From a virus (taxonomy: Duplodnaviria; Heunggongvirae; Uroviricota; Caudoviricetes), in the IMG/VR virus record IMGVR_UViG_3300021479_000008, positions 55,003 through 119,002 of that record: a stretch of DNA of 64,000 bases; one strand, 5' to 3'. Below the pieces are notes generated by a model. It did no database searches, was not told where the DNA came from, and saw only the letters and a list, made by a program, of their open reading frames with translations. Shown piece by piece: positions 13,056 to 62,672 of the stretch (positions within the stretch are counted from its first letter, which is position 1; each line of letters opens with the position of its first letter). A program made the translations under genes and the position numbers.

Positions 13056-13064
13056 ATTTTTCTC

Positions 13065-17883: not shown

Positions 17884-17888
17884 GGATA

Positions 17889-49124: not shown

Positions 49125-50023
49125 TGTTTCTCCTTCAACTTTTGAATTGTTTTACTCAACTGAAACTCCAACTGTGCCGGGCTTACGTATACTGGGTCAA
49201 TGTGACACCACGAAAGGTTTGGATTACCAACAGGTAAAATGTAGTAAGGAGCAAGGCAACGAGGATACATAAGAAAGGTAGGTGTTTCCTGGGACGCTCC
49301 CATGTGGCTAACGCCATTGTCAATCGTCACGAGCAACGCGGCTTTCTGGAGAATTAACATTAACCGATTTAGTGGGATACCAAACATTGCATCTCCAAAC
49401 TTGTCAAAGCCATCTGGTAGTATATCTGTTGGTGCTCCAACGAAGCGGATCGGTACATCGGGAAACTCTTTCTTCAACAAACGCAACATTGGTAACCACT
49501 TTGGAACGGGAAGCATTTTATTAGGTGGGAGGCCGGGAGTATTCTTGTCACGGCTCTCACAACTGGCAGAGAACATGGAAATGATAATACAACCAGCTAA
49601 TAAACCTAATGGTTCATGTGGACCTTCCATCCATTTTCCTTGAGCGGTTGTATCTGGAATATAAATAGGCTTTACTGCTTCGTTGCCCGGTGCCAACTTT
49701 ACGCCCAACAAATCAGCATAACTTCGTGCTAGGTGCTGTTGTTTATCGCGACTTACGATGAATGCTTTGTTGACGTCGAAAACGTGTTCAAAATCGAAAG
49801 TAATTCCTTCTGGCCGATTGAATACTGTTCCGAATGTATGAATTAACGTTCCCGGATTCCACAAATCGCGTACCATACCTTCATACAAACACGCGACGTG
49901 ATCTGGAAGCGTTGACATCCACACATCAACTGGTTGTGTTTGTTGTTCTATCCATTCGCGTAATGATGGCCCAACGTAAAGGCCGTCGCCTATCAAATTG
50001 TGACTAGTAAATAATACCTTCAT
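49115..50023 (-). CDS. glycosyltransferase family 9-like (heptosyltransferase fold)
   Basis: N-terminal MKVLFTSHNLIGDGLY resembles the GT9 start (MKILIIRLSALGDVL). C-terminal LVTIDNGVSHMGASQETPTFLMY resembles GT9 ([25 protein letters not shown]). Confidence 0.55.
   Translation of the reverse strand: MKVLFTSHNLIGDGLYVGPSLREWIEQQTQPVDVWMSTLPDHVACLYEGMVRDLWNPGTLIHTFGTVFNRPEGITFDFEHVFDVNKAFIVSRDKQQHLARSYADLLGVKLAPGNEAVKPIYIPDTTAQGKWMEGPHEPLGLLAGCIIISMFSASCESRDKNTPGLPPNKMLPVPKWLPMLRLLKKEFPDVPIRFVGAPTDILPDGFDKFGDAMFGIPLNRLMLILQKAALLVTIDNGVSHMGASQETPTFLMYPRCLAPYYILPVGNPNLSWCHIDPVYVSPAQLEFQLSKTIQKLKEKQCR
49689..49700. repeat. GGTGCCAACTTT motif copy (in GT9 gene)
   Basis: Exact 12-mer on the plus strand. 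Minus-sense AAAGTTGGCACC. Confidence 0.8.
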
Positions 50024-50235
50024 TGTGCCTCCCTACACTTAAATGGTTTATGCATCTGGACACGAATCGACTGCACTATTGTCTCAACTAAAAACTGTTT
50101 ATCTTCATTTGGAAGTGTAGACCAAGAGTAATGAGCTAAACGTGTACTTGTCAACTCATTAGAAACTATAGTTTCAGCAGCACTAGTTGCTGCTATCCTA
50201 AGACGTTTGTTGAATACATTATCCGGCAATATCAT
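50020..50235 (-). CDS. hypothetical small protein
   Basis: 71 aa. Confidence 0.3.
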   Translation of the reverse strand: MILPDNVFNKRLRIAATSAAETIVSNELTSTRLAHYSWSTLPNEDKQFLVETIVQSIRVQMHKPFKCREAQ

Positions 50236-51104
50236 TTCTCCTCCTTCGCTCTACGTACTAAAGTTCTCGGCCCATCGGGCGTCATCGAATACTGGATAAG
50301 GTTGTTCAACAACACCAACACTGCTTGGTAACGTCTACTATTATTCACTATTCGTCTTCCTGTTTGATATCCCAAATTGTCTATCTCAACTTCCTGTGAA
50401 GCGGCTTCGGATAAGACTGGAAGCAACTGACATACTGCTGGCAGGACTCCTTTCGAGCGTGCTGTCTTTTTCAGGCCTACGACTAACTTCCTGTCGAATG
50501 TTAGATGCCCTTCCGCGTCTAGACTGTACGGAGCGTTTAACTTGTCGACTTGCAGGACCAATTTCTTATCTTCTACCGTGACTGGTTTGAGCATGTCTTG
50601 CAGCATCGTGATAAAGCGATCGTACTTGTCGGTCAGCTTCTCACGTCTTACGGAAAGTTTTTTCTCTTTCCGGTTGAACAAGCGATTGACTTTACTGAAC
50701 AACGGTGGTTTATATGACTTCAATACTTTCTCATAAGATACAATTGCAACAGTGTACAATGGTAATTTGGCTAATGGAGATTTTATCTCTAAAGCTCTTG
50801 AACGAGCTCGCAGCATCTCATTCAAATACCCCAACTGACCACGACTGAATCCAACACCTGATTCTTTTTTGTACTTTACGTACACGTAGGCTTTATCGTA
50901 CCAGTCCAAGGCTCTGACTAAAACCTGGATACGCTGGCCTATGTCACTGGTAAGGTATCCTTTGTAGATACGTATGAGTTCTCCACGGTGTGGTCTCTTA
51001 GGTCTTGGAGGAGCTATCGGTTTTGCTGGACGTACTCGTTTCGTTCTTGTTTTCTTGCGTAGCATACGCCTCCTCTTCTTCAAGCTCAATCCCATTTCCA
51101 ACAA
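50232..51104 (-). CDS. hypothetical protein
   Basis: 290 aa with a very basic N-terminus. The true start is possibly internal. Confidence 0.4.
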   Translation of the reverse strand: MLEMGLSLKKRRRMLRKKTRTKRVRPAKPIAPPRPKRPHRGELIRIYKGYLTSDIGQRIQVLVRALDWYDKAYVYVKYKKESGVGFSRGQLGYLNEMLRARSRALEIKSPLAKLPLYTVAIVSYEKVLKSYKPPLFSKVNRLFNRKEKKLSVRREKLTDKYDRFITMLQDMLKPVTVEDKKLVLQVDKLNAPYSLDAEGHLTFDRKLVVGLKKTARSKGVLPAVCQLLPVLSEAASQEVEIDNLGYQTGRRIVNNSRRYQAVLVLLNNLIQYSMTPDGPRTLVRRAKEEK

Positions 51105-51312
51105 AGCCGACTACAATCTTTGTCAACAACTGAATCAACTCAAAGATCGTCAACTTGTATTTCTTTTCGACAGCTGCAATCCCATCGTGCAACTCAGATT
51201 CGGCTTTACACCTACGAATATAGTTCGTATGGCGAATTGAGACTGGTACTTTTCTATCGTGCAACGTAACCTCCTTTACGCTTTCGTATCTTCTCTTCTC
51301 GTCGCAAGACAC
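50998..51312 (-). CDS. hypothetical protein (overlaps both neighbours; uncertain)
   Basis: 104 aa. Large overlaps (107 nt downstream with 50232..51104, 59 nt upstream with 51254..51658) suggest a misassigned start here or in a neighbour. Confidence 0.25.
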   Translation of the reverse strand: MSCDEKRRYESVKEVTLHDRKVPVSIRHTNYIRRCKAESELHDGIAAVEKKYKLTIFELIQLLTKIVVGFVGNGIELEEEEAYATQENKNETSTSSKTDSSSKT

Positions 51313-51658
51313 GAAGCGCTTTCTTGATTATGTCAAGCTTGATTTTTCTCTTGTACCGGAGTGCCAACTTTTCAAGCGTATATTTCTTTTTCTTTATCCG
51401 CTTGAATATACGATCGGCAGCGGCTCTCACGTCACTGGGTACATGCTTGTAACGCTTCTCACGTTTCATGTGCTTGAATACTTGTTTCGCACACTCAACG
51501 TGATACGTTACTCGCGGTTGACGTGCTGACAACTGTCTGGCGTTCTCCGGCAACTGGGCCGGCCACGGATGGTAGCCAGCTTTTGGATCGACAACAGGAG
51601 CGTCGATAATTGGTTTGTTGCATAGATCGCAAATATACCAAGTACAGAAGCGAATCAT
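51254..51658 (-). CDS. hypothetical basic protein
   Basis: 134 aa with a Lys/Arg-rich C-terminus. Confidence 0.4.
   Translation of the reverse strand: MIRFCTWYICDLCNKPIIDAPVVDPKAGYHPWPAQLPENARQLSARQPRVTYHVECAKQVFKHMKREKRYKHVPSDVRAAADRIFKRIKKKKYTLEKLALRYKRKIKLDIIKKALRVLRREEKIRKRKGGYVAR
51358..51370. repeat. GAGTGCCAACTTT motif copy (variant)
   Basis: One mismatch from the 12-mer. Confidence 0.6.
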
Positions 51659-51949
51659 TATCTCTCCTATACGTCTCGCCCAAACACACGCTTGAATACT
51701 GACGGTTGTTCCTGTTTCTTGTACTCTTGTACAAACTCGGCAAACTGGGCCAACGCTTCACGCAAGAGAACAAAGTAAGCTTCCAACTTACCGGCTTGAT
51801 TCGTTCCCAACTTACGTATCTCATCTGGTGTCATAAGACTCCTTACTGTGCCAATAATGATTGTTTAATAAACGTTTCTAGGTAAGTGATTGACTGTACC
51901 ACTACAACTACCATTACTATCAACAAGAAAAATGGTACAACGATATCTT

Positions 51950-52258
51950 TCATAGCTTTACTCCTCTCATTTGATTTTGTAATTGTTCACGTGCTCGTTC
52001 TTCGGAAAATTTTGGATGAATACCACCTTTGGAACGAAGTGTTATACGACGTTGACGTTTCTCTTCGGGTGTCATGCTATTTCTACGTTCTAGTCTTTTT
52101 GCCTGAGAGTTAACTTTATCCTGTATCTGTTCATTGGTAAGCTTCACTTTCAGTAAACACTTTTTCAACTGACGCCGCAGACGATGCGTTAATACTGGTT
52201 TATGTATCTGGAAGTCAATGCTCAACTTAAGTTTTGATTTCTTTGCACGTTTATCCAT
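51950..52258 (-). CDS. hypothetical basic protein
   Basis: 102 aa with a strong GGAGGAGT RBS. Confidence 0.4.
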   Translation of the reverse strand: MDKRAKKSKLKLSIDFQIHKPVLTHRLRRQLKKCLLKVKLTNEQIQDKVNSQAKRLERRNSMTPEEKRQRRITLRSKGGIHPKFSEERAREQLQNQMRGVKL

Positions 52259-52509
52259 ACTCCTCCTTTATTCAACTGCTCCAGCTGCACTCAGTGATTG
52301 TCCGGCGGCCTTACATGCATTCTTTCTAATCGCAGACATCGTTTTGAATGCAGCTGGCGCACTGGAATGCGCCACGTGGGTAATCAATACGAAGCTGGTA
52401 TAGTCTTCATATCTTTCATTAAACGTCCTAGGATTCGTCCCACGATAATACTATTGGGTGTGGATCTTCGTAGTCTTCATCGTCGAAGTCGAAGGTTCAC
52501 AGAGACACC

Positions 52510-52866
52510 TCACTTTTCTTTAAGCGATTTCCGTTTTGACTGATCGATTGGCTCGATTTCCTTACCCACATACTTACGGGACATTCTGGCACAAAGATGG
52601 TAGAGAATCTTCGTTGCCCCTTCGAGTACATCGGCGACTTCGGTAATGCGATCGTAGTCCTTGTCGTTGACTTCTGTGGAAGGAATTTCGGTTTGACTTT
52701 CCAACTCTCTCGCGTCTTGCTGGATCTTTACCAGTTCGGTGAGAGCATTATCCAATCGCCGGACAATCTTGTCCGCTCGGTTGAGATACTTCTTGTCTGT
52801 CTTAGCTTTCGTTTCTTTTTCTTCTGTTTCCAATTTCTCGATTGCAACAACGTTTCCAGTCTTCAT
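52510..52866 (-). CDS. hypothetical protein
   Basis: 118 aa. Follows a 243-nt non-coding gap. Confidence 0.4.
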   Translation of the reverse strand: MKTGNVVAIEKLETEEKETKAKTDKKYLNRADKIVRRLDNALTELVKIQQDARELESQTEIPSTEVNDKDYDRITEVADVLEGATKILYHLCARMSRKYVGKEIEPIDQSKRKSLKEK

Positions 52867-53123
52867 TAGTTCTCCTTTTCGGTTGTGGTTTCGGTAACTT
52901 CTGTTTCTTCTACTGCAACTAAGAGCTCATTTACATCTGGCATGTGGGTACTGATTTCTTTTGCTAGTTTGGCACGTAGTTCACGATTCTCTTTCTGCAA
53001 CTTACGTACTTTACGATTCAACGCAGCAACTTGTTCAGCATACTTAAGTTCCCAATTAACTTCTGTTTTCTTTTTTACTGCCATGTTTCCTCCTTGGGTG
53101 GTATGCATTATACATCGACTCAA
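52866..53123 (-). CDS. hypothetical coiled-coil protein
   Basis: 85 aa with a heptad-like LKYAEQVAALNRKVRKLQKENRELRAKLAKE. Confidence 0.35.
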   Translation of the reverse strand: MSRCIMHTTQGGNMAVKKKTEVNWELKYAEQVAALNRKVRKLQKENRELRAKLAKEISTHMPDVNELLVAVEETEVTETTTEKEN

Positions 53124-53310
53124 CTCCCATCAATGCACACGTTGCTAATAACTCAAAATAGTGTCGTCTAGGATCCTCGCGTAAGCTTGCCTCCTTTACT
53201 AGTGTATGAACATAATCTTTTATATACTTCCGTTTCGGTGGACGTTCCAGTTTTACTTGTAGCTGGAGTAGGTTTACTATACCGACGTGGAAAGCTTCAC
53301 GCTTTAACAT
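53056..53310 (-). CDS. hypothetical small protein
   Basis: 84 aa. Confidence 0.3.
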   Translation of the reverse strand: MLKREAFHVGIVNLLQLQVKLERPPKRKYIKDYVHTLVKEASLREDPRRHYFELLATCALMGVESMYNAYHPRRKHGSKKENRS

Positions 53311-54022
53311 TTTTCTTTCCTTGTAACTCTTCTTTCGTTATAGAGAACAACACTTCAGCTTTCGGACCACCGTGTAGCCGCCAAGTCGTTCCATCGAAAC
53401 TAGGAACAAGACCCAACATCCACAACTGTACGGCTGGACCAAATGGGTACTGCCCACGTGGATGTTTGATATACTTCCACTTTGGTATCTTAAAAAACGA
53501 TCCAATATAGGCCCACACGCTGTCCCCCACGCTGGCCCACACGCTGTCCCTCACGCTGGCCCTCACGCTGGCCCACACGCTGGCCCTCATGCTGGCCCAC
53601 ACGCTGTCCCCCACGCTGGCCCTCACGCTGGCCCTCACGCTGTCCCATTTACGAAGCAACTGAATATGTTGCTTCGTAATTACTGGGGGAGTTATCTTGA
53701 ACGGATGAACAATTTGCTTCTTTACCAAAATCTTATACAGCTTCGTTTCCCACTTCTTGTGGACTGCTAACGCAGCCTCTTTGTGTTTTCCATTGAACCA
53801 CGCAGGAGTAATAGCCTGATCGACTTTCAACTCCCATATATCTGGAGCAAGGTAATTGTTATTCTTCGGACTTATCTCAACACGGGCAAATTCCATCAAC
53901 ATAGGATCAGAAGTTTCGTCTTTGAACTTGGCCAATTCCAAAAGATCGGTGTGCGAGTCAACTCCAAACTTCCACGTGACTGCAGCGTTTCTGGCAACGA
54001 TACAACTAAAGGCATTGCACAT
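53297..54022 (-). CDS. hypothetical protein with internal (W/R)ASV tetrapeptide repeat array
   Basis: 241 aa. The central 44 aa (SVRASVRASVGDSVWASMRASVWASV...) are encoded by a 12-bp tandem repeat. Confidence 0.45.
   Translation of the reverse strand: MCNAFSCIVARNAAVTWKFGVDSHTDLLELAKFKDETSDPMLMEFARVEISPKNNNYLAPDIWELKVDQAITPAWFNGKHKEAALAVHKKWETKLYKILVKKQIVHPFKITPPVITKQHIQLLRKWDSVRASVRASVGDSVWASMRASVWASVRASVRDSVWASVGDSVWAYIGSFFKIPKWKYIKHPRGQYPFGPAVQLWMLGLVPSFDGTTWRLHGGPKAEVLFSITKEELQGKKNVKA
53481..53618. repeat. tandem 12-bp repeat array (~11 copies of cacgctggccc(a/t) / cacgctgtccc(c/t))
   Basis: Near-perfect dodecanucleotide tandem repeats within the 53297..54022 CDS. Confidence 0.8.
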
Positions 54023-54357
54023 TACTTTGCTCCTTTGAATTTCTCATTCTTTTCAATGTTCAACGAAACCTGCCGTACTCGGTTTTCTTTTTCTAACCGC
54101 CGCTCGTACGACTTCCAGCGCTTGCCCCACAGCTTCCGCGCGACAACTTCCCACTCTTGGTGCCAACTTACGTTCGTTCTCTTGAAAGATGTGTAAAGAA
54201 ATTTCCATTCACTATCTTTCGGGTTGAATACCTTAAGTTTTTGCAACTTCATTGCACGCTTGATACGCTCACACAGTTTCTTTTCTTCCGTTTGCTTACT
54301 CTTGATCTCATCGCGCAATGACTTCAACTGGGAGATAACTTCTGTGGATAGCTTCAT
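54022..54357 (-). CDS. hypothetical protein
   Basis: 111 aa. Confidence 0.35.
   Translation of the reverse strand: MKLSTEVISQLKSLRDEIKSKQTEEKKLCERIKRAMKLQKLKVFNPKDSEWKFLYTSFKRTNVSWHQEWEVVARKLWGKRWKSYERRLEKENRVRQVSLNIEKNEKFKGAK
54169..54179. repeat. GGTGCCAACTT motif copy
   Basis: 11 of 12. Confidence 0.6.
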
Positions 54358-54644
54358 AGAAATATCCCTTCAGCTGCATCTAACGCTTTCGACGTATCTT
54401 GTTCACACCACAACTCATACGCTTCTTGGGCTGCTTTTTCTTTCTGCTTGAAAATACAACGCCGTATCGCCATACGCATGGAAACATCGACAAGATGGTG
54501 GGGAAGGATAATACGCAAGACGTCTTGGAATTCTTGTTTACCAAAACGCTGGAAACAATCCATCAATGTTTCGTTAGGGGCGACGGCATAGTTCTCTGTC
54601 AACGTCGCCAGCAGCTTCTTCTCCGCAAATGTTAGAGCTGGCAT
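54354..54644 (-). CDS. hypothetical protein
   Basis: 96 aa. Promoter copy 7 and an AGGAG RBS lie upstream. Confidence 0.4.
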   Translation of the reverse strand: MPALTFAEKKLLATLTENYAVAPNETLMDCFQRFGKQEFQDVLRIILPHHLVDVSMRMAIRRCIFKQKEKAAQEAYELWCEQDTSKALDAAEGIFL

Positions 54645-54659
54645 AATTCTCCTCTCAGT

Positions 54660-54672
54660 ATATTATACAGAT
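54660..54672 (-). promoter_or_regulatory. extended -10 promoter copy 7
   Basis: Minus-sense AATCTGTATAATATACTGAGAGGAGAATT-ATG. Confidence 0.5.
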
Positions 54673-54686
54673 TTGGTTGATCGTTT

Positions 54687-54983
54687 CTACATGTGGCAAT
54701 TGTCACAATACGAAAGCGAGAAATTCACCGACTCATCTGTATCGATATGCGTGGCTGGTTCACCGCACTTGTCGCATTGGGCACGGTGTATGTTCGGGTC
54801 AGCTGGAAACAACTTGACGGCTTTCTTGTGTTGCCAGCTCGCTTCGTGTGCTTTGACTTCCTCTTTTCGCAACATATAGTTGCAGGGATCACATTCGTAT
54901 ATCTCACCACCTGGCTCTTCGTGACTGACTCCATGTGGATGACCCGGTGGGAAATTGTCCATACGACCGACTAATCTTGTCAT
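54687..54983 (-). CDS. zinc-finger-like small protein
   Basis: CDPCNYM ... CDKCGEPATH ... CDNCH. Confidence 0.4.
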   Translation of the reverse strand: MTRLVGRMDNFPPGHPHGVSHEEPGGEIYECDPCNYMLRKEEVKAHEASWQHKKAVKLFPADPNIHRAQCDKCGEPATHIDTDESVNFSLSYCDNCHM

Positions 54984-55001
54984 CTTAAGCCTCCAGTATT
55001 G

Positions 55002-55400
55002 CTAACGTTTAGGCCAAATATATGGAAGATTATCTGGAACCTTCCACTTGAATTGGCTGTAGTACAGCTTATCTTTTCTCAACAGGTTACTTCTATGCGA
55101 ACGATGAAACTTCTTGTTTCCAACAAAAGGCGGAAAACGTACCTGGGTATTGCGTGGAATAGGTATCGTATTTTTATACCCACGGTGTTTCCACTCTTGA
55201 ATCATACAACGCAGGTAGTAACGAAGAGCTGGCTGATATCCTTTCCACATTTTCACAGCTGGATGATACTGCCAGCCTTTCGATTTACCTTGCAGCACGT
55301 TAAGTATCTGCATGGCTTCGACTCGTTGTTTTCCAAGTCTTTTGTTGTCTAGACACGCGGCTGACTTTTGAAAGCTAGCATACGGAAGAAATGTCTGCAC
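55002..55400 (-). CDS. possible pyrimidine-dimer DNA glycosylase (DenV-like); weak
   Basis: The N-terminal pattern LDNKRLGKQRVEAMQIL loosely resembles Pyr_excise LADQHLMAEYREL. Remote similarity only. Confidence 0.25.
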   Translation of the reverse strand: MQTFLPYASFQKSAACLDNKRLGKQRVEAMQILNVLQGKSKGWQYHPAVKMWKGYQPALRYYLRCMIQEWKHRGYKNTIPIPRNTQVRFPPFVGNKKFHRSHRSNLLRKDKLYYSQFKWKVPDNLPYIWPKR

Positions 55401-55798
55401 TAAGCCTCCAGAATGTCTTCGAACGTTTGTTGTTCCGGTACACGTTTACTAGAACGTTTTGGCAAAGGAGCGGGAACGTCTTGGTGCTCGTTTGCTATTT
55501 CGACTAACTGCTTAACGTATTTCTTCAATTTCTTTGCTACTATTTTCGTTTGTGCTGGAGTAAGGTTCTTGTACTTGAGAGACTTTTGTGCTACGTCGGT
55601 TAGAAAGTTCCCGTCGTAGCCATTGAATCCCATTCCATTGTCAACGATTGTGGCTTGTACTTCCTTCTCCATACTCGTCTGACGCTTGTACAAGCCCTGT
55701 AACATCTTCCAGATGATCTTGGAGTGTGGATAACCGTTTAGCTTACCTTCCGGTTTCTCCAAGACCATCCGGATGCGTTCTGCGTCGAAGTGGATCAT
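55400..55798 (-). CDS. hypothetical protein
   Basis: 132 aa. Confidence 0.4.
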   Translation of the reverse strand: MIHFDAERIRMVLEKPEGKLNGYPHSKIIWKMLQGLYKRQTSMEKEVQATIVDNGMGFNGYDGNFLTDVAQKSLKYKNLTPAQTKIVAKKLKKYVKQLVEIANEHQDVPAPLPKRSSKRVPEQQTFEDILEA

Positions 55799-56004: not shown

Positions 56005-56204
56005 CCACTGTCAGGTGTCGCGTAGCCGTTATCAACCAAGTCGTGTCCCTTCAACTTACACACTGTGTAGAACAACACACGAGACTTCAATGTATAATAA
56101 GCATCCACCACCCGGTAGAGTAGTGGATGCTTGAACAGGAACTCTTGATTGTGGTAGTCACGTTCCATCTCAGCGTAATCTGCATCCAATAGATTCGTGA
56201 TCAC
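55944..56204 (-). CDS. hypothetical small protein (GTG start)
   Basis: 86 aa. Begins 26 nt downstream of a GGTGCCAACTTT motif copy. Confidence 0.3.
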   Translation of the reverse strand: MITNLLDADYAEMERDYHNQEFLFKHPLLYRVVDAYYTLKSRVLFYTVCKLKGHDLVDNGYATPDSGCIQMDCNRCGYSWPTHWLY

Positions 56205-56206
56205 GA

Positions 56207-57682
56207 TTAGTTCACCGACGCTTTCTGCTCGGTGCCAACTTTACCGAGCACGTTTTCCATTGTCTCTTCTACGGCATGACGCTTGACGATCATGGTAATC
56301 ATGTCTTTCGATTCTTCCAACGTCATGTAAGGAGCGTGCAACCTTTTCAGTTCTGGCGACGTGGAGCTCATGTAAAGCATGTCTCCCTTCATCATCAACC
56401 CTTCGGCACCTTTCGTATTGATAATCGTCTTGGAATCTGCCAACGACGGCAACCGGAAGCTGAGACGCGCGGGGAAATTGGCTTTGATGCTTCCCTTGAT
56501 CTGCTTCACGTCTGGACGTTGAGTGGCCGCGATGCAATAGATACCACTCGCACGAGAACGAGCGACAACGGTGCTGAGCTTGTCACTGTTCATTTTCGCT
56601 TCACTACGTTCCAGACTCGGTCCCATCAGGTCCGCGAGTTCGTCGATCACGATGATAATGTACGGCATTTTCTTTTCTGCTGGCTGCCGTTCATTGTACT
56701 CGTGAATGTTGCGAACGCCCTGCATACCGAACTTATCCAGCCGGTCTTGTGTTTCGTCAATCGCATTCTGGAGATAGTTCATCGTGTGATACAGATTGGT
56801 CGCAATCGGATGCCACAGGTGCGGAAGAGCGTCAAAATGCTTGAACTCCACACCTTTCGTGTCGGAGATAATCAACTTGATTTCGTCCGGCGACATCGTC
56901 CAGCAAACCGTATCCACAACTGCGTGCAATAACGTAGACTTTCCGCCACCGGTCGTTCCGGCGATCAACAGGTGTGGAAGTGACGTCAAATCGTCCACGT
57001 ACGGCTCACCATCTGCCGTGATACCGAAGTTAACGGGAATCGGCAGGTGCCAATTTTTGTCTTCGGAATGATCACGAGCGTCTTGCATAAACTCCACGGC
57101 ATGACTCAACGTGTCGCGGAATTGCACGATCTGTCGCTCTTTGTTGGGAATAAAGAAACCGACTGCGGACTCACCGGGCATTCTCTTGATCAGAACGGCT
57201 TCGGCTCCGAGGGCTACGGCTACGTCTTTGTGGATACTTTCAAGGTGGGCGACTTTCGTTCTGGCGAGGGGAAGGTAGCGGTACGTGCTGATGATTGGAC
57301 CGACGCTGACTGGTCCGACAAACTGGGCGTGTTTGCCGAGGACTTCAATCTTTTCGTTGATTACATCGACAACTTCTTGCTGCTCGTCGGTGAGACGCTC
57401 TTTGGCTTTGGATGCTTTCTCGTTGCGGGACTTCGCACGAGCTGAACGACGGTCTTCCTTCTTTACCTCACGGTCGGCTTTGTCCAACTTCTCTTTTGCC
57501 GACGAGGACAACTTGACACGGGCAAGACGAGTACGATCACTGTGGGATTCTTCCCGACGCTTTCCTTTTCTGGCACCTTTGGTATGGACGCATGGCTTGT
57601 TCTTCCACGCAGAGCAGACTGGGCAAATTACGTTGAGGCTGACATCTTCCGACTTACGTGACTTTTTCATGTTTTTCTCCAC
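56207..57682 (-). CDS. FtsK/SpoIIIE-family DNA translocase-like ATPase with N-terminal zinc finger
   Basis: Walker A IAGTTGGGKSTLL and Walker B IIIVIDELADLM. N-terminal CPVCSAW..C. Confidence 0.65.
   Translation of the reverse strand: MEKNMKKSRKSEDVSLNVICPVCSAWKNKPCVHTKGARKGKRREESHSDRTRLARVKLSSSAKEKLDKADREVKKEDRRSARAKSRNEKASKAKERLTDEQQEVVDVINEKIEVLGKHAQFVGPVSVGPIISTYRYLPLARTKVAHLESIHKDVAVALGAEAVLIKRMPGESAVGFFIPNKERQIVQFRDTLSHAVEFMQDARDHSEDKNWHLPIPVNFGITADGEPYVDDLTSLPHLLIAGTTGGGKSTLLHAVVDTVCWTMSPDEIKLIISDTKGVEFKHFDALPHLWHPIATNLYHTMNYLQNAIDETQDRLDKFGMQGVRNIHEYNERQPAEKKMPYIIIVIDELADLMGPSLERSEAKMNSDKLSTVVARSRASGIYCIAATQRPDVKQIKGSIKANFPARLSFRLPSLADSKTIINTKGAEGLMMKGDMLYMSSTSPELKRLHAPYMTLEESKDMITMIVKRHAVEETMENVLGKVGTEQKASVN
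56231..56242. repeat. GGTGCCAACTTT motif copy (3' end of FtsK-like gene)
   Basis: Exact. Confidence 0.8.
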
Positions 57683-57698
57683 ACGACTGAATTTTGTA

Positions 57699-57920
57699 CT
57701 ACTGATTTCTCAACCCATCTACTATTTTCTGTTTGGCAATGGCTTCGGGCGAATCGGCTGGAACCCACTGCTGATTAACCCAACGCATCGAACAAATAGC
57801 GTCACGATGCTCGTACGAGAGTGTTGAGCCGGCAAAGAACACTCCACCACACTCCGGACAAAAACTTCGTTTGATAAGCTCCTGCAACTTCGGACTCAAC
57901 CGGTCTTCACTATACGTCAT
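57699..57920 (-). CDS. zinc-ribbon small protein
   Basis: CPECGGVFF. Confidence 0.35.
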   Translation of the reverse strand: MTYSEDRLSPKLQELIKRSFCPECGGVFFAGSTLSYEHRDAICSMRWVNQQWVPADSPEAIAKQKIVDGLRNQ

Positions 57921-57929
57921 ACGGACCTC

Positions 57930-58196
57930 CTACTTCGCGTTTTGAACGGCTTTAACAACCTGCTGCAACTCCAACCACAAAACTTTTGTTAACGTTCGGA
58001 GTTCACGAGAGCCGCCTTCTTCGTAACTTGTCATTAAACGTTCAATGGCTGCATCTGTCTGGGGAACATCGCACGTGAGTTTTTCAACGTTTCGAAGCAA
58101 GCGATTGTGAAACTCAACGACACGTTCCTGAGCGCATTGCTGTATGCGTTGCTGGATACGAGCATCAACACGCGGGTCCTGAACTAGACGCTCCAT
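57930..58196 (-). CDS. hypothetical small protein
   Basis: 88 aa. Confidence 0.35.
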   Translation of the reverse strand: MERLVQDPRVDARIQQRIQQCAQERVVEFHNRLLRNVEKLTCDVPQTDAAIERLMTSYEEGGSRELRTLTKVLWLELQQVVKAVQNAK

Positions 58197-58258
58197 AGAA
58201 ACACCTCACGTAAGAAATTTGTGCGTTTATAGTATTCGCACCCCACTCACCACAACAA

Positions 58259-58543
58259 CTACGCAGCGTGTTTCTTCGTCTTGGCCGGTGCCAACTTTTT
58301 CAACGCGAGCTGGATACGAACACGGTGGGGATTGTTCCGCTTTGCACCTTTGTTGTAGTGAATTGAAACGCAACGGTGACCCTTCTTCGAACCGCAACGC
58401 TTCTCGGGGCAATCCACCTTCAACGCGTCGACGATGGGAACAACCTTCTTGGTCTTTTTGCTGGTGGTTGACTTGGCGGACTTCACTGACTTCTTGCTCG
58501 ATCCAGACTTCGACGAATGCTTCGATTTGCTTGACATTTCCAT
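58259..58543 (-). CDS. basic Ser/Lys-rich DNA-binding-like protein (histone H1-like composition)
   Basis: SKSKHSSKSGSSKKSVKSAKSTTSKKTKK with an AAGGAG RBS. Confidence 0.4.
   Translation of the reverse strand: MEMSSKSKHSSKSGSSKKSVKSAKSTTSKKTKKVVPIVDALKVDCPEKRCGSKKGHRCVSIHYNKGAKRNNPHRVRIQLALKKLAPAKTKKHAA
58287..58298. repeat. GGTGCCAACTTT motif copy
   Basis: Exact. Confidence 0.8.
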
Positions 58544-58683
58544 TTTCTCCTTTTGATTTTTTTTTTGTTACTGCAACTTCTGTGCAAGGTTCACAAACAT
58601 CACTGCAAAATCTTCCTTCGTGATAAGACCATCAAAATACATCTCGATGATCTTATCTGCTTCACGTCTAATCTCTTCCTGCG

Positions 58684-58911
58684 TCACGCGGTGCCAACTT
58701 TCCCAACGAACACGCCGTTTGCCATCACGATACGACACTTGCCACTACGGGAACGGCTGCTGTTCCAACGTTTGGTGGTGGTATGTACACGAACGGCTCG
58801 CATCAACTTTTCCTCTTCACTCACATATTGCCGGCTAGGACGACTGTGGAGATTGCTCACTAACGCCGAAGTTAGTGCTTCTCCGTTTAGAGTGATATTG
58901 CTCAGGTCCAT
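58684..58911 (-). CDS. hypothetical small protein
   Basis: 75 aa. The 3' end is encoded by a GGTGCCAACTTT motif copy. A further ~50-aa ORF overlaps downstream in another frame. Confidence 0.3.
   Translation of the reverse strand: MDLSNITLNGEALTSALVSNLHSRPSRQYVSEEEKLMRAVRVHTTTKRWNSSRSRSGKCRIVMANGVFVGKVGTA
58690..58701. repeat. GGTGCCAACTTT motif copy
   Basis: Exact. Confidence 0.8.
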
Positions 58912-58937
58912 AACTCCTCCACGAAACTACGTGAGTC

Positions 58938-58950
58938 AGGTGCCAAACTT
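58938..58950. repeat. GGTGCCAAACTTT motif copy (1-nt insertion)
   Basis: Variant with an extra A. Lies in the gap 27 nt upstream of the next start. Confidence 0.6.
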
Positions 58951-59310
58951 TTACAGCTTCACAAAACGAATGAAACCGACGGTGGAAACTGTTCCACTAC
59001 CGCCCTGCAAACTTTCTGCATAGGCATACTTTCGACCGATTCTTGTAACGATTGCACGGCTCCACTTGTACAACGTCGAACCACAGTACGTAACTTTCAC
59101 GTGGTCTCCAACATTCAGTTTCTTGATCTCGGCAATCTTTTCTGCTTCGTATTCTGCATCGGCTTTTGCACGTTGTTTGTTTGTCATACTGCCTCCTATT
59201 TTCACGTTGATTTCTACATCCATATTCGCACGTTTAGGGCATCTTTTTCGGATGCCCTTTATACACTTCGTGCATGGTCTTATGGTAGTGGAATCGGGAA
59301 TTAAATACAA
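58951..59310 (-). CDS. hypothetical protein
   Basis: 119 aa. Confidence 0.4.
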   Translation of the reverse strand: MYLIPDSTTIRPCTKCIKGIRKRCPKRANMDVEINVKIGGSMTNKQRAKADAEYEAEKIAEIKKLNVGDHVKVTYCGSTLYKWSRAIVTRIGRKYAYAESLQGGSGTVSTVGFIRFVKL

Positions 59311-59395
59311 GAGAAAAAACGATTATTTTTCACTGTGTTTATAGGGGTCCGGAGTGATCGATAATTAAAAGCACTAGTGTTTACTGGAATTTCAG

Positions 59396-60661
59396 CTATT
59401 TCCCATCGACCACTTTCCGGAATGCCAATCCACTGCTTTTCGCGATGATACGGACTCGCGAATGCTGTTCAAGTTCTCCGGAAGCGATCATGTGGGCAAT
59501 CGGCTGCACGATCATCTTTTCGATGGTACGCCGCAAGTGGCGGGCACCATATCTTACATCCGTTCCTTCTTTCAACAACATATCTGTGGCAAGGTCTGTA
59601 CACTGGATGCGGATATCGTGTGCGATCAAACGCTGCTCAACATTACTAATTTCCATCTGCGTTATCTTCTGCAACGTGTCATGCAAAAGAGGATTAAATA
59701 CCTGTACCTCGTCAAGCCGGTTAAAGAATTCTGGGGTGAATTTCTGTCTCGCGGCTTCTATCGAGGCACGACGCATTTTCTTCTGTACATCCGGTGCCAA
59801 CTTTCCTTTCGCTTCTTTCAGGATATTCATTATGTCTTCCGAGCCAAGGTTTGACGTCATGATTACAACGGTATGGCTCAGATCGACGTCTTGATCGTCT
59901 ATACGAAGCGAGGCTCTGTCGAGTATTCCCATAAGCAACTTGTAGAGCAATACAGTTGCTTTCTCGATTTCGTCCAGCAGGAGAATACCCAACGGTTTTC
60001 CCGTGTTAGTGGAAAGGGAAATATTTTCGTCGGTAAACAACCTGTCCCCGAATTTGCGGAAGGAAAACATCGTTGCCATTTCTCCACAGTTGAATTTCAC
60101 CATCTTCGTACGACTGGAGAAATAGTACTCGGCTAATGCTTCTGCAATTCTCGTCTTGCCCACTCCGGTCGGACCGAGAAGCAGGTAAATGCCTCTCGGC
60201 TTGTACGGGTCACAGATATCGGCATCGATCTTGGCCACTAGATTGGCAAACGATTCCACGGCGTCGTCTTGACCGACTACACGATGCTTGAGAAATCGGA
60301 TTACCTTTTCTATTTTCTCCGACCGTTTCTCCGGATGAAGATGGATTGTCTTTCCGGTGAAGCTTACTGCTGGCAGTTCTTTTGGCAACGACGATGTCTT
60401 GGGTGCCAACTTTGCTTCTTTCTGCCGATACAGAATGTAATGACGAGCAAACTTCCGTTTTGGAGTTAGTCCACGATAGTGATCACGCATACACGACGGA
60501 GCAGTACAGAAATAGTTCTCTATCTTCCGCGGTATGCGTGGAATCTTATGGCGCTTACGACGTGGTTTGTTTTTCTTCATCTTCCCGGCTCCAGAAACCA
60601 ATACTTCATCAACGCTAAATATCCGTGATGAAGCTCTGGAGCGAATTTTCTCAACAACCAA
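59396..60661 (-). CDS. Clp-family AAA+ ATPase (ClpX/ClpA D2-like) chaperone
   Basis: VVGQDDAV, Walker A LLLGPTGVGKT, Walker B LLLDEIEKA, sensor and arginine-finger region GARHLRR. The basic N-terminal extension may not be translated (TTG start in the track; an ATG lies at about 60580). Confidence 0.6.
   Translation of the reverse strand: MVVEKIRSRASSRIFSVDEVLVSGAGKMKKNKPRRKRHKIPRIPRKIENYFCTAPSCMRDHYRGLTPKRKFARHYILYRQKEAKLAPKTSSLPKELPAVSFTGKTIHLHPEKRSEKIEKVIRFLKHRVVGQDDAVESFANLVAKIDADICDPYKPRGIYLLLGPTGVGKTRIAEALAEYYFSSRTKMVKFNCGEMATMFSFRKFGDRLFTDENISLSTNTGKPLGILLLDEIEKATVLLYKLLMGILDRASLRIDDQDVDLSHTVVIMTSNLGSEDIMNILKEAKGKLAPDVQKKMRRASIEAARQKFTPEFFNRLDEVQVFNPLLHDTLQKITQMEISNVEQRLIAHDIRIQCTDLATDMLLKEGTDVRYGARHLRRTIEKMIVQPIAHMIASGELEQHSRVRIIAKSSGLAFRKVVDGK
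59793..59804. repeat. GGTGCCAACTTT motif copy (in Clp ATPase gene)
   Basis: Exact. Confidence 0.8.
60402..60413. repeat. GGTGCCAACTTT motif copy (in Clp ATPase gene)
   Basis: Exact. Confidence 0.8.
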
Positions 60662-60770
60662 GCTTGCTTGTACTGTTCAAACTGTAGCCAATGCATACAA
60701 CCTCCATACATAGAAATCCCAGGCTTTGTGACGGCCTGGCTGATACACTTCGTGCATTGCTCATTATATG

Positions 60771-60783
60771 ATATTATACAGAA
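60771..60783 (-). promoter_or_regulatory. extended -10 promoter copy 8
   Basis: Minus-sense CGTTTCTGTATAATATCATATAAT, about 95 nt upstream of the Clp ATPase start. Confidence 0.5.
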
Positions 60784-60830
60784 ACGTGCAATGGAAAATT
60801 ACAATCAGGAATTATAAGGTGTTTAGAGGA

Positions 60831-62672
60831 TTAATCTGTGGACGGTTTCCACTCTTGTGGAATCTCACCATACTTCTCGCGACGAATATGCTCAGGCACC
60901 AAATACCCAAGTTGTACTTGGCGGACGATTTGGGCAATGGAGTAGGACAAAACCCTATCGTCGTGACAACCGGGCATGGCTTCTGGTCTTCCTCTTTTCT
61001 CTTGGTTGCGAACGAACGTTGTCATTTCTTTGAGCAGGCCAACGCTATAGATTTTGTTGGGAAACGAAGCGACGTATTCCTTGGCACGATTCAATGCAAG
61101 AGGACGGGTTTTTTCGGTGGTGGGAAACCCGAGTTTTTCACGCATCCTGCCTCCGCCTGTAGTCCCATCGTCGGAATGCCCCGCCTTAACGTTCTTCCAA
61201 TACCCGGCAAGAGTCCAATCAATATGCTTGTACAGGTTCATATACGACTCTGCACGTTCCAACGTGAGGATTACCGCACCACCTTCGTTGTTACGTTCTA
61301 CTGCAATCAACGCATCGTTATACCTGCGACCCAACACTGCCAGATCCCACGCAAATTCCTCCGGCAAAACCTGGTCACGATATTCTGCTACCTGTTCTCC
61401 TGTTTCCTGGTCGATGACTTCTCCAACACTCCAGTCTAGTTTTCCGGTGCCAACTTCGATTCCCGATGCAACGTCAGCACCGATAATGTACATACGATGC
61501 GGACGTTCTTTCCTGTATATTTCCAACTTCGGGTGGACTTCATGGGGAGTGTATACCAATAGTTCCTGGTAACGGTACCGAACCACTTCACTGTCAAAGA
61601 AGGCTCCACCAGTGCTCAAGAAACAGGTCGTGGAATCTTCCGGGTATTTCTCATCGAACTCATGGCGAAACGCTTCCTTTGTTTTCCTCCGCCAATGCAT
61701 CTGGTACATGTCGACGGTATGACCAAGTTTCTCTTGGGCACCGATAAATAGCAATTCTTCTTTTGTTAACGTCTTAGAATCGATCGGTGTGGCTTCACGA
61801 TATTCTTCGTGCATGTTCCAGCTATGGAAATGGAAAACAAACTCACGGTACCCTTTTCCAGTATCCATCGCACGCTGACACTCTTCGTGGAAATACCCAC
61901 CAAATCCATTTGCTGTGGAAACAAGATCCAGTGTTCCTTCATCTGGAATTGCGGCCTTCATATTGGACATTGTTTCTTCTGGATTATGTTCCCAACGTGC
62001 GACTTCATCTGCCATTACGTGAGAATAAGTATAGCCTTGACCGGCTTCTGTGTCCTCTGCACTGGCACAACGTATGGCAACGTCTATAGCGTCAAACACT
62101 AATTCTCTACGATTAGAGTACGTCGTGTGAAGTAAATGCCGCCTCAATTCTCGTGCAAAGGAATTCTGTGCCTTATCGAATGGATTGACTTCAGCGAAAT
62201 GCTGGAGACAACGTTTCAGCATTATGAAACAGTCAGTGGCTGTCGTCCCGTTGCGGGAGATAAGTAACCCATTCTCACCCGGGTTAAGAATGCAGGGAAT
62301 GAAGATTCTACGTAGGGCGGTGTAGGTGGTATACCCGGCTTGTCTAGGCTTAAGGAATATGTTTCTCTTTCCAAGTCGTTTCTCGATATCCTGCTGAATA
62401 TTATTCATCAGGAAAGGGACTAGGTTCTTGTTCCAGAACTTCAGCTCGTTACTTAGTAAAGTGTCTTCACCTTCCTTATGTGGTTTTTTCTGAATCCAAC
62501 AGAAACGGAACATGAACTCTTTCGCTCCGTAGTTCTGCCACATAGACTGGAGTAGGAATAACTGATCTTGTACTCTCTTTGGATCGGGGCCTGTGTATGC
62601 AGAACGCGAGCGGGAAAAGCCATAAGGAACAGGGGGGCGTTGTAACGTTGGTGGTGAAAGGCCTATGCCCAT
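60831..62672 (-). CDS. terL: terminase large subunit
   Basis: 613 aa. N-terminal ATPase with Walker A-like KPRQAGYT, and a C-terminal nuclease region. The HNH endonuclease gene lies immediately upstream. Confidence 0.8.
   Translation of the reverse strand: MGIGLSPPTLQRPPVPYGFSRSRSAYTGPDPKRVQDQLFLLQSMWQNYGAKEFMFRFCWIQKKPHKEGEDTLLSNELKFWNKNLVPFLMNNIQQDIEKRLGKRNIFLKPRQAGYTTYTALRRIFIPCILNPGENGLLISRNGTTATDCFIMLKRCLQHFAEVNPFDKAQNSFARELRRHLLHTTYSNRRELVFDAIDVAIRCASAEDTEAGQGYTYSHVMADEVARWEHNPEETMSNMKAAIPDEGTLDLVSTANGFGGYFHEECQRAMDTGKGYREFVFHFHSWNMHEEYREATPIDSKTLTKEELLFIGAQEKLGHTVDMYQMHWRRKTKEAFRHEFDEKYPEDSTTCFLSTGGAFFDSEVVRYRYQELLVYTPHEVHPKLEIYRKERPHRMYIIGADVASGIEVGTGKLDWSVGEVIDQETGEQVAEYRDQVLPEEFAWDLAVLGRRYNDALIAVERNNEGGAVILTLERAESYMNLYKHIDWTLAGYWKNVKAGHSDDGTTGGGRMREKLGFPTTEKTRPLALNRAKEYVASFPNKIYSVGLLKEMTTFVRNQEKRGRPEAMPGCHDDRVLSYSIAQIVRQVQLGYLVPEHIRREKYGEIPQEWKPSTD
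61446..61456. repeat. GGTGCCAACTT motif copy (in terL)
   Basis: 11 of 12. Confidence 0.6.

Follow-up and report, generated by a model that had tools for sequence, protein, structure and literature searches.

The question raised by this locus is what a short sequence is doing when it recurs many times, always in the same orientation, in one part of a phage genome. We addressed this question in a 64-kb window, which is the whole stretch of DNA that was analyzed, and in metagenomic relatives of this phage, which are contigs of ~107-127 kb designated here by L numbers. No cultured relative was found, and there were no relatives in the genome collection.

An oriented motif clustered on one strand

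The window contains 10 matches to GGTGCCAACTTT at ≤1 mismatch, every one on the + strand and six of them exact, as compared with 0.23 on average, and never more than 3, in shuffled sequence (0/100 shuffles reach 10). This agrees with a preliminary description of this DNA that had reported at least ten oriented copies within ~12 kb. One additional copy at 58939 has two mismatches, giving an eleven-copy cluster that extends from 49689 to 61457 with a spacing of 0.25-2.8 kb. All window genes are on the minus strand, so the copies are antisense to every gene and the sense strand of the motif reads AAAGTTGGCACC. The copies are as follows:

49689..49700, + strand: exact copy of GGTGCCAACTTT within a conserved 302-aa ORF (49115-50023, minus strand), translated KLAP
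51360..51371, + strand: 1-mismatch copy AGTGCCAACTTT within ORF 51254-51658, with the stop codon 106 nt further on
54159..54170, + strand: 1-mismatch copy GGTGCCAACTTA within ORF 54022-54357, translated SWH
56231..56242, + strand: exact copy in the FtsK/SpoIIIE-like gene (56207-57682), 24 nt ahead of its stop codon
57046..57057, + strand: 1-mismatch copy GGTGCCAATTTT midway through the FtsK-like gene, overlapping the conserved peptide NWHLPIP
58287..58298, + strand: exact copy in the 3' tail of a stand-alone Zn-finger gene (58259-58543; PF24623)
58690..58701, + strand: exact copy, 6 nt ahead of the stop codon of ORF 58684-58911, near a small coupled ORF that begins at a GTGA overlap
58939..58950, + strand: 2-mismatch 12-mer GGTGCCAAACTT with its core TTGGCACC intact, intergenic, directly following a TAA stop codon, with the RBS-ATG of ORF 58684-58911 ~28 nt downstream
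59793..59804, + strand: exact copy inside the Clp-like AAA+ ATPase gene (59396-60661)
60402..60413, + strand: exact copy in the N-terminal part of the Clp-like gene
61446..61457, + strand: 1-mismatch copy GGTGCCAACTTC within TerL (60831-62672), in the 3' third of the gene
26723..26734, + strand: core-only copy GGTGCCAACTGA, isolated in a 1605-aa tail gene outside the cluster, probably a chance occurrence

Most of the coordinates given earlier are retained, with three shifted (51358 to 51360, 54169 to 54159 and 58938 to 58939); the copy at 57046 had been missed, and eight copies rather than seven lie at 56.2-61.5 kb. The partial copies noted at ~1271 and ~12055 exist but are at chance level.

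The relatives have in common an invariant 8-bp core, TTGGCACC, that is identical to the core of the window copies and that reads 5'-C-S-GGTGCCAA-C/G-3' in the element's own orientation. A position matrix shows one conserved block of ~13 nt whose 5' flank is A-rich; past the core there is only a weak R-n-S-S-a-a, so the loosely conserved CAAGA tail that had been proposed does not hold. GGTGCCAACTTT is a single uncultured phage's form of the conserved 8-base signal TTGGCACC.

The motif is a nucleotide-level signal within a hypervariable module

The window copies are translated as KLAP/KLAL (five), KVGT/EVGT (three) and SWH/NWH (two), with the remaining one being intergenic, which bears out the earlier report of translation in three frames. 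Homologous genes also keep the site in differing frames. Specifically, the copy in the tail of the Zn-finger gene has same-place counterparts in the homologous genes of L004 (14474) and L023 (6333), and the frame is KLAP in the window and L023 and IGT in L004. The use of three frames, together with retention in differing frames, indicates that this non-chance signal acts at the nucleotide level and is not a protein motif, as had been suggested. Other copies are also retained in place. The copy at the end of the FtsK-like gene is at the same position in L003 (17710) and L051 (18038), the Clp-like gene copy at 59793 is matched in L003 (12791) with identical KLAP codons, the TerL copy has a same-position counterpart in L010 (1420), and orthologues of ORF 58684-58911 in L001 (12414) and L004 (12097) likewise have a copy ahead. 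The copy at 57046 may be partly protein-driven, as the NWHLPIP peptide is encoded by L002 too (15157).

Within the window the motif is carried solely by the 3' third of TerL and the module downstream of it. Two features define this region:

46224..60830, - strand: hypervariable module that lies between TerL on one side and the SPFH and portal genes on the other, made up largely of small accessory genes
60744..60810, - strand: host-type promoter-like TGTATAAT followed by a conserved leader box ATGCACGAAGTGTA, just downstream of TerL

The promoter-like sequence probably starts transcription of the module, and a second copy of promoter plus leader box is found at ~59262-59330. The corresponding module of L008, a more distant relative, contains six canonical promoters of the sigma-70 kind (TTGACA-N17-TATACT) at a similar density, indicating that the module is densely punctuated by transcription signals. 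Neither the sigma-factor gene that had been thought present nor an RNA polymerase was seen in Pfam and PHROGs scans of 81 window ORFs. Likewise, in relatives, the precomputed Pfam hits of called genes over ~22 kb upstream of TerL included no RNA polymerase or sigma factor; the DNA examined covers all but ~35-45 kb of the genome.

Strand choice is inverted between related lineages

In all of the motif-bearing relatives the core spans late TerL into the downstream hypervariable small-gene module. The strand that carries it nevertheless differs, as six genomes (L006, L011, L025, L026, L029 and L052) have the core at equivalent positions on the other strand, with a sense strand that reads CGGGTGCCAA. 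When the 7-mer TGGCACC and its reverse complement were counted from the TerL start onward, eight sense-form genomes had 51 copies on that strand versus 2 on the other, and the six inverted genomes had 22 copies on their strand versus 1 on the other. Strand choice is thus near-uniform within a genome and inverted between lineages. The ~10 kb upstream of TerL has ≤2 copies of the 7-mer per genome, which is about chance level, and L051 has 1 copy in a further 12.5 kb upstream. The TerL tree mixes sense-type and inverted-type genomes, and orthologous genes have a sense-type site ahead in L002 and an inverted-type site ahead in L011.

Sites are enriched at gene ends and coincide with cassette junctions

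The placement of the two types relative to genes is also different. Sense-type sites fall in the interval -45 to +30 nt relative to an ORF end in 40% of cases versus 15% for random positions, whereas inverted-type sites do so in 81% of cases versus 21% for random positions, with 16/21 inverted-type copies beginning 2-8 nt past a stop codon. Intergenic copies are typically 25-50 nt upstream of an RBS-ATG, and some sense-type copies directly abut the Shine-Dalgarno sequence (L051 16458 reads TTGGCACCTAGGAGG, and L004 12829 is similar). The differing gene-end enrichment indicates that the positional constraint changes with orientation relative to genes, which is as expected for an interaction with transcription or translation and unexpected for a replication, packaging or nicking signal.

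In addition to this enrichment at gene boundaries, indel junctions coincide with the sites, which is compatible with the recombination hotspot suggested earlier. Specifically, L052 and L026 differ by exactly one unit of element, UTR and gene with a copy of the element at both bounds, and three or four of the five L001 sites are ≤18 nt from a breakpoint of homology with L004. Phage indels commonly fall at gene boundaries anyway.

Alternative explanations

The main rival reading, which we consider somewhat unlikely, is that the copies are recognition sites of a phage-encoded site-specific nickase that would leave virion DNA with localized single-strand interruptions, like those of T5, phiKMV-like and tf/LUZ24-like phages, and whose nicks might seed recombination in the variable module. 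Nick motifs in those phages share with the motif here a short asymmetric consensus, an uneven distribution on one strand (~5-14 copies, with 5-11 here, on essentially one strand in one genome part), family-wide conservation with small consensus drift and independence of reading frame. For example, the 14 TACTRTGMC sites of phage tf share one strand, with 11 of them in one genome half (PMC3517423), and sixty related phages are enriched for WACTRTGAC (PMC11780129). A strand chosen independently of gene direction would leave the inversion between lineages unsurprising; sites at indel junctions are as expected of recombinogenic nicks, and the window encodes several HNH_3-type endonucleases. However, 88% of the documented nick-associated motifs are inside coding sequences with no intergenic enrichment (PMC11780129), as compared with the strong, orientation-dependent gene-end enrichment seen here, where 81% of the inverted-type sites fall between genes, shortly past a stop codon. 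Conservation of the HNH genes does not extend across the relatives that bear the motif, we found no candidate nickase that is conserved, and the sites are restricted to ~12 kb of a ~120 kb genome. Assemblies cannot reveal physical nicks.

The preliminary description had also proposed a middle or late promoter, and the simple sense-strand form of this proposal is weakened. A conventional sense-direction promoter for a phage sigma factor or phage RNA polymerase, of the T7/Syn5 single-block or T4 late kind, would account for the single conserved block with its A-rich flank, for the distance of intergenic copies from the RBS-ATG and for the sense-strand form being co-oriented with the genes for all window copies. 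The motif also resembles the promoter of the Syn5 single-subunit RNA polymerase, ATTGGGCACCCGTAA (PMC3950665), which is likewise single-block with a similar core, TTGG(G)CACC. Against this, the conserved block is shorter than that of Syn5, no such polymerase gene was detected in the DNA examined, and the core is antisense to the genes in the six inverted genomes. The copies that abut a Shine-Dalgarno leave 1-4 nt for a start site, no second promoter block and no -10 or -12 partner occurs at a fixed distance from the copies, and the module already has host-type promoters. Overall this reading is unlikely. We think it quite unlikely that the copies are polar signals for DNA translocation or recombination, either loading and orienting sites for an FtsK/SpoIIIE-like motor or Chi-like sites protecting a genome end from RecBCD/AddAB. 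The FtsK orienting polar sequences (KOPS) are polar motifs of 8 bp, as is the SpoIIIE recognition sequence, and known Chi sites are G-rich. The strictly co-oriented 8 bp core is KOPS-like, and is G-rich in the GGTGCCAA orientation. The cluster surrounds a gene for an FtsK-like protein whose N terminus has, instead of a gamma domain, a Zn finger that putatively binds DNA, and another gene of the cluster encodes this Zn finger on its own. Nevertheless, the motif does not co-vary with the protein, as the FtsK-like protein and its fused Zn finger are found equally in sense-type genomes, in the inverted genome L006 and in L007, which lacks the motif. Polarity relative to conserved gene order also flips between lineages, and a strong gene-boundary preference, orientation-dependent placement and confinement to 12 kb are unexpected for such signals.

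Two further possibilities have very little in their favor. Boxes recognized by the small terminase subunit, or a pac site, had been suggested for the motif, and the cluster does begin inside TerL with copies that are direct repeats. This is very unlikely, as the copies are distributed over 12 kb with no tight array within a few hundred bp, copies in relatives follow individual small genes at boundaries throughout the module up to 10 kb downstream of TerL, sister lineages use the opposite strand, and no small-terminase gene was identified adjoining the copies. It is equally improbable that the motif is an RNA-level element of the sense transcript, such as an RNase processing site, a translational operator or a structured motif. 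Copies are present at gene junctions inside operons, and some adjoin ribosome-binding sites, but the sense RNA of inverted lineages bears the complement, so no single RNA-binding factor would read both. In addition, there is no consistent secondary structure (mean z-score -0.3 to -0.6), an Rfam search was without hits, and some copies are inside TerL, upstream of the module's promoter.

A putative regulatory site for module transcription

An ordinary promoter or packaging site is unlikely because related phages carry the signal on the opposite strand. Our tentative preference, at somewhat less than even probability, is that the motif is a putative binding site for a sequence-specific factor controlling module transcription, resembling an operator or promoter box and doubling as a cassette junction. 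The nearest parallels are the 'stoperators' of mycobacteriophage L5, which are sites for the gp71 repressor, and the dispersed asymmetric C1 operators of phage P1. These are asymmetric 12-17 bp sites present in many copies dispersed through operons, mostly in short intergenic spaces or gene ends, with one orientation to transcription per genome. The phage motif is likewise asymmetric, multi-copy and dispersed, with one orientation within a genome. However, L5 and P1 are temperate with a known repressor and an orientation that is constant across relatives, whereas here no repressor or integrase was seen, the orientation flips in sister lineages, and the sites are confined to one ~12 kb module. 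A further parallel is the T4-type PeSL, a cassette of sigma-70 early promoter and stem-loop terminator in hyperplastic regions (PMC2839356, PMC4122927). PeSLs are also short, conserved repeats of regulatory appearance that lie on either side of small variable ORFs and coincide with insertion, deletion and replacement junctions; in contrast to these composites, the element here consists of one block of 8-14 bp and lacks both a -35/-10 pair and a consistent hairpin.

Several observations run against a regulatory site. Orientation relative to transcription flips in sister lineages, and we know of no well-studied promoter, operator or stoperator system that inverts in this way. Six of the eleven window copies are well inside genes, and the copy in the late gene TerL precedes the promoter that the module itself has. 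As noted, phages commonly have indel junctions at gene boundaries. Finally, no cognate binding protein was identified, with no gene within ±10 kb of TerL matching the presence pattern of the motif.

For the regulatory reading we infer that a protein binds the site, that transcription is the process affected and that the factor is sequence-specific and probably phage-encoded. The motif, as GGTGCCAACTTT/AAAGTTGGCACC, would then be a family-wide strand-specific signal read on double-stranded DNA; it is limited to the accessory ('early-type') gene block between the terminase and portal genes and favors gene ends and cassette junctions. It may punctuate the module in a regulatory sense, in the manner of an operator/'stoperator' or a promoter box, acting inside and at the ends of genes in the window arrangement as a roadblock, insulator or antisense start, and directly upstream of each gene in the inverted lineages. 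As a by-product, the common short sequence would become a point where gene cassettes are gained and lost.

An oriented 12-mer in the module between the terminase and portal genes

We scanned the window for the 12-mer GGTGCCAACTTT and found ten matches with no more than one mismatch, all on the + strand and all between 49689 and 61457. The chance level for such matches is a mean of 0.23, and none of 100 dinucleotide-preserving shuffles reached ten, in agreement with the preliminary description of an over-represented 12-mer held in one orientation. With two mismatches allowed, a copy at 58939 that retains the full 8-bp core TTGGCACC is added, as is a core copy standing alone at 26723. A k-mer census also ranks the motif as the most over-represented long word of the window, with no reverse-complement copies of its 9- to 12-mers. 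The 11 motif copies all lie on the same strand, at intervals of 0.25-2.8 kb across 12 kb. The positions first reported for them were correct to within 2-10 nt, although a copy at 57046 had been overlooked. Since the window has genes on the minus strand only, the sense strand of the element reads AAAGTTGGCACC. The copies run from the 3' third of the gene for the large terminase (TerL) down to 49689, and the range of the motif is therefore the module of small genes between TerL and the portal gene.

Gene order of the window in the sense direction
GroES-like gene, HNH endonuclease gene, then TerL (60831-62672); minus strand
Clp-like AAA+ ATPase gene, then small ORFs including a stand-alone Zn-finger protein (PF24623); minus strand
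FtsK/SpoIIIE-like gene, whose product has at its N-terminus the same Zn finger as the stand-alone protein; minus strand
About 10 kb of small ORFs without assigned function; minus strand
SPFH, portal, head and tail genes, then a replication and DNA-modification block; minus strand

Reading of the element in three frames was also confirmed: five copies encode KLAP or KLAL, three KVGT or EVGT and two SWH or NWH, the remaining copy being intergenic. A protein motif fails on this test. Conservation is likewise observed at the DNA level. The Zn-finger gene has a copy in its 3' tail at the homologous place in the window and in the related loci L004 and L023; this copy encodes KLAP in the window and L023 and IGT in L004. 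Other copies shared with relatives lie at the 3' end of the FtsK-like gene (window, L003 and L051), inside the Clp-like gene with identical codons (window and L003) and in TerL (window and L010). The copy at 57046 overlaps a conserved peptide, NWHLPIP, and may be partly protein-driven. Overall, the motif is real, conserved and nucleotide-level in its action.

Several other features of the gene complement were recorded. PF24623, a putative DNA-binding Zn finger, occurs as the stand-alone 94-aa protein (58259-58543) and as the N-terminal fusion in the FtsK/SpoIIIE-like ATPase (56207-57682), and many other small module proteins of the relatives have CxxC or SWIM-like Zn motifs. An unannotated ORF of ~38 aa (58570-58686, minus; VTQEEIRREADKIIEMYFDGLITKEDFAVMFVNLAQKLQ) starts at a GTGA stop/start overlap directly after the motif copy at 58690. 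The ORF at 53297-54022 contains a 12-bp tandem repeat, GGCCCTCACGCT (53510-53646, 11.4 copies, 86% matches), and similar repeat-bearing ORFs are present in L001 at ~16690-16890. HNH_3-type homing endonucleases are encoded by three free-standing genes, and one further ORF has an HNH N-terminal to a GTP cyclohydrolase I domain (HNH-bearing ORFs at 62663-63175, 10301-10789, 915-1499 and 5601-6758); the HNH gene adjoining TerL is missing from most relatives. Modification-type genes of the window code for GTP cyclohydrolase I, a PTPS/QueD-like protein, a radical-SAM/SPASM protein, glycosyltransferases and a methyltransferase (5601-6758, 6752-7114, 9321-10313, 10786-11835 and 8121-8801), with further epimerase and methyltransferase genes in relatives (L053, 1-12000). 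This gene set suggests a 7-deazaguanine or other DNA hypermodification pathway. The family A DNA polymerase (1526-4468, 980 aa) combines an N-terminal uracil-DNA-glycosylase-superfamily domain and a 3'-5' exonuclease domain in a single ORF, and a 101-aa protein of the replication block (13065-13370) has a clear SWIB/MDM2 domain (E = 8e-22), which is unusual for a phage.

Distribution of the core among related phages

Megablast returned no close DNA relative among cultured phages, to which the best protein identities are ≤28% (TerL) and ~35% (FtsK-like). TerL homologues of 42-71% identity were found on metagenomic contigs of ~107-127 kb, and ~50 loci were retrieved for comparison. Neither the FtsK-like protein nor the DNA polymerase, each used alone to scan the viral contig collection, gave a match, the genome collection contained no relatives, and a literature search with the motif string gave nothing informative.

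Copies of TTGGCACC on the sense strand, 3' of the TerL start, in related loci
L001: 5
L002: 4
L003: 9
L004: 6
L010: 3
L023: 4
L051: 9

The relatives have about 4-9 module copies per genome, nearly all on one strand and reaching up to 10 kb downstream of TerL. Over the ~10 kb upstream of TerL the 7-mer TGGCACC occurs ≤2 times per genome, which is about chance, and in the L051 genome the next 12.5 kb in the same direction holds a single stray core copy. The distant locus L049 (TerL 42% identical) has 8-10 copies of AAGTTGGCAGC, one base off the core, and in L048, which is without the accessory module, the sole motif is the protein-coded copy within TerL. In the post-TerL module of L008 (TerL 45% identical), six near-identical promoters of canonical sigma-70 form, cTTGACA-N17-cTATACTTg, replace TTGGCACC (12421-20859). 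L007 also lacks TTGGCACC; the oriented word there is another one, cGTTTCCAGt, with seven sense-strand copies (6195, 7387, 12121, 12265, 12825, 19234 and 20076) and a single copy on the opposite strand. The seven sense-strand copies all lie inside genes, five of them in one frame (V-S-S).

Strand inversion between lineages

A second group of relatives (L006, L011, L025, L026, L029, L044 and L052) has yCGGGTGCCAA(s) on the sense strand. This is the reverse complement of TTGGCACCCG, and thus the same 8-9-mer on the other strand. The flanks also agree in the element's own orientation, being CCGGTGCCAAC in the window and CGGGTGCCAAC in L026 and L052. When counted from the TerL start onward, the 7-mer occurs 51 times on the sense strand versus twice on the other in eight sense-type genomes (the window, L001-L004, L010, L023 and L051), and 22 versus 1 times on the two strands in six inverted-type genomes (L006, L011, L025, L026, L029 and L052). 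In a neighbour-joining tree of TerL the sense-type L051 falls among the inverted-type genomes, indicating that the module type is not simply inherited with TerL. One orthologous gene has a site ahead of it in both L002 and L011, sense-type in the former and inverted-type in the latter. It is unusual for a conserved signal that depends on orientation to flip between sister lineages, and the flip constrains the mechanism whether the element is a regulator, nick or recombination site.

Placement at gene ends and cassette junctions

Inverted-type sites are concentrated just behind genes, with 17 of 21 (81%) starting 2-30 nt past an ORF end versus 21% at random positions. Sixteen of the 21 begin 2-8 nt past the ORF end, and the ribosome-binding site and ATG of the following gene typically come 22-50 nt further on. 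Of the 58 sense-type sites, 40% fall in the interval from -45 to +30 nt around an ORF end versus 15% at random, the others being intragenic. Placement thus varies with the orientation of the element to the genes, and we regard this as the strongest indication at hand that the element may interact with gene expression and not with replication, packaging or a strand-neutral process.

The gene content of the module is highly variable across relatives, and the element is also observed where genomes part. L026 and L052 differ by one unit of element, UTR and gene, with two element copies as its ends. When L001 is compared with L004, a homology block ends ≤18 nt from three or four of the five sites of L001. 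PeSL-type mobile regulatory cassettes similarly occupy a hyperplastic region and mark indel or replacement junctions (PMC4122927). However, a PeSL is a composite of an early sigma-70 promoter and a stem-loop terminator, and the element described here has neither a -35/-10 pair nor a consistent hairpin.

Anatomy of the element and tests for known signals

A matrix of 35 sense-type sites consists of one block, a-A-A-R-TTGGCACC-R-n-S-S, and no second conserved block was found from -30 to +40 nt. The core of all copies contains the sigma-54 -24 element TGGCAC, but the matrix has no information at the positions expected for a -12 element (TTGC; GC 10-11 nt 3' of GG), and inspection of the reverse complements of inverted-type sites also revealed none; a sigma-54 promoter is thus out. 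The TTGGCA in the element is similar to a -35-like TTGACA. No TAnnnT or TATAAT-like hexamer occurs at a fixed offset among 42 sense-type and 17 inverted-type sites, which removes a sigma-70 or MotA-like promoter. An RNA element fails as well, there being no consistent fold in either type (mean z-score -0.3 for sense-type and -0.6 for inverted-type sites). No Rfam families or tRNAs were found in the window, and scans of 46-64 kb for intrinsic terminators and promoters gave counts at or under the shuffle expectation.

Promoters and leader signals elsewhere in the module

In relatives, a consensus host-type promoter heads the module just past TerL (past the Clp-like gene in L003).

Module-head promoters, leader boxes and hairpins
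Module-head promoter: L004 11403; L011 12612; L052 11963; L051 12508; L003 13270
Leader box ATGCACGAAGTGTA: window 60744-60757 and 59262-59275 (minus); L004 11438; L023 4931
Hairpin pairing CTCC with the Shine-Dalgarno GGAG: L001 12432-12446; L004 12123-12137; L011 13157-13173 and 14485-14501

At L011 12612-12690, and at L003 13270-13345 and ~19370, a GC-rich hairpin with a T-run (GGGGTC...GACCCC-ATTTTT) lies no more than ~30 nt past a consensus TTGACA-N16/17-TATAAT promoter and, judged by sequence, looks like a promoter-proximal terminator or attenuator for the head of the module. The 14-nt leader box, conserved in the window, L004 and L023, is directly 3' of promoter-like sequences and is itself followed by a hairpin, a nut/put-like layout that would suit an antitermination or attenuation leader. 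A further motif, the extended -10-like tttcTGTATAATa, is likewise oriented and over-represented, with ten copies on the minus strand of the window (first base of TGTATAAT at 62763, 60780, 54669, 53114, 34300, 22506, 18100, 7126, 1511 and 888). Most are in short intergenic gaps, 10-15 nt 5' of a ribosome-binding site and ATG, in the replication, structural and accessory modules, and these sites are probably phage promoters for host RNA polymerase. L004 has a copy after its FtsK-like gene (~16156). The small 5' UTR hairpins that pair CTCC with the Shine-Dalgarno (e.g. CCACTCCaaaGGAG) suggest structure-controlled translation for some module genes.

Candidate factors reading the motif

The sigma-factor gene that the preliminary description had placed in the window was not found, as neither a sigma factor nor an RNA polymerase was detected among 81 scanned ORFs. 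No phage RNA polymerase gene was detected in the 64 kb window or among precomputed Pfam matches of called genes over ~22 kb upstream of TerL in relatives, which together cover all but ~35-45 kb of the roughly 120 kb genome. Walking the L051 genome to -22 kb from TerL revealed sugar and modification genes and no polymerase. Two 1600-aa ORFs are out as divergent RNA polymerases, having no DxDxD and compositions that are tape-measure-like and tail-protein-like.

The 64 kb window also gave no integrase or repressor family match, whereas L5-type stoperators go with a cognate repressor and a temperate lifestyle. Presence/absence profiling of ORF clusters within 10 kb on either side of TerL revealed no cluster that tracks the motif. 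The best partial profile matches are helical proteins of 84 aa (53056-53310) and 88 aa (57930-58196), and a PDB sequence search with two conserved module-end proteins returned no matches. Relatives encode a small HTH_8 protein upstream of TerL (L003 5281-5571). The FtsK-like protein has an N-terminal Zn finger and no gamma domain in sense-type genomes, in the inverted-type L006 and in the motif-less L007, and its architecture thus does not co-vary with the motif. Co-variation does not single out the FtsK Zn finger as motif reader, and the missing gamma domain speaks against a KOPS/SpoIIIE recognition sequence read through that domain.

Discussion

No known class matches the element in all the respects tested, the chief departure being its lineage-specific strand inversion. 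The pac or small-terminase boxes suggested earlier do not hold, as the copies lie 0.25-2.8 kb apart over 12 kb, rather than within a few hundred bp, and reach up to 10 kb past TerL. A plain sense-strand promoter of a phage polymerase is made less likely by several observations, although the core is similar to the Syn5 promoter (PMC3950665). The core is on the opposite strand in L006, L011, L025, L026, L029 and L052, no polymerase or sigma gene was detected in the DNA covered, and some sense-type copies abut a Shine-Dalgarno (L051 16458, L004 12829 and L001 12967), leaving almost no space for a transcription start site. Should transcripts start on the GGTGCCAA strand in both types, the element would be a directional promoter, antisense in the window and sense in the inverted type. 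Nick-associated sites, as in T5, phiKMV and tf-type phages, are an unlikely reading that nonetheless has several points in its favor: the one-strand rule, copy number, family-wide conservation and uneven distribution are all common to known nick motifs (PMC3517423, PMC11780129), and a strand flip between lineages would be unremarkable for them. However, the element is enriched at gene ends, unlike known nick motifs, which exhibited no intergenic enrichment in the one family studied systematically (PMC11780129).

We therefore commit, tentatively and at somewhat less than even probability, to a regulatory binding site, with nick sites as the main rival. Specifically, the element would be bound by a sequence-specific factor that affects how the accessory module is transcribed, and the same element would double as a cassette junction. 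L5-type stoperators share with it many copies of an asymmetric 12-13 bp site held in one orientation to transcription per genome. L5 stoperators and P1 C1 operators are regulatory sites whose placement fits the element, but the inversion does not. Rather improbably, the element may instead be a site of strand-specific DNA transactions that sister lineages can carry in wholly reversed polarity, for example the target of a site-specific nickase or of an enzyme that initiates recombination, with a double role in punctuating expression and driving cassette exchange within the hyperplastic module. Outside the favored reading and the nick sites, probability falls on a sense promoter, on Chi-like or polar translocase signals and on unknowns.

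If the DNA-transaction reading is true, it would describe a dedicated, integron-like gene-shuffling system of lytic phages operating on an 8-bp core. Nicked sites, if true, would extend the long-unexplained phage nicks to a new family and link them to gene boundaries and cassette exchange. The strand-specific TTGGCACC would serve as a simple sequence tag for locating the module, and the element would give a handle on how variable accessory genes are organized and regulated in a large uncultured family of ~120 kb soil/peat phages.
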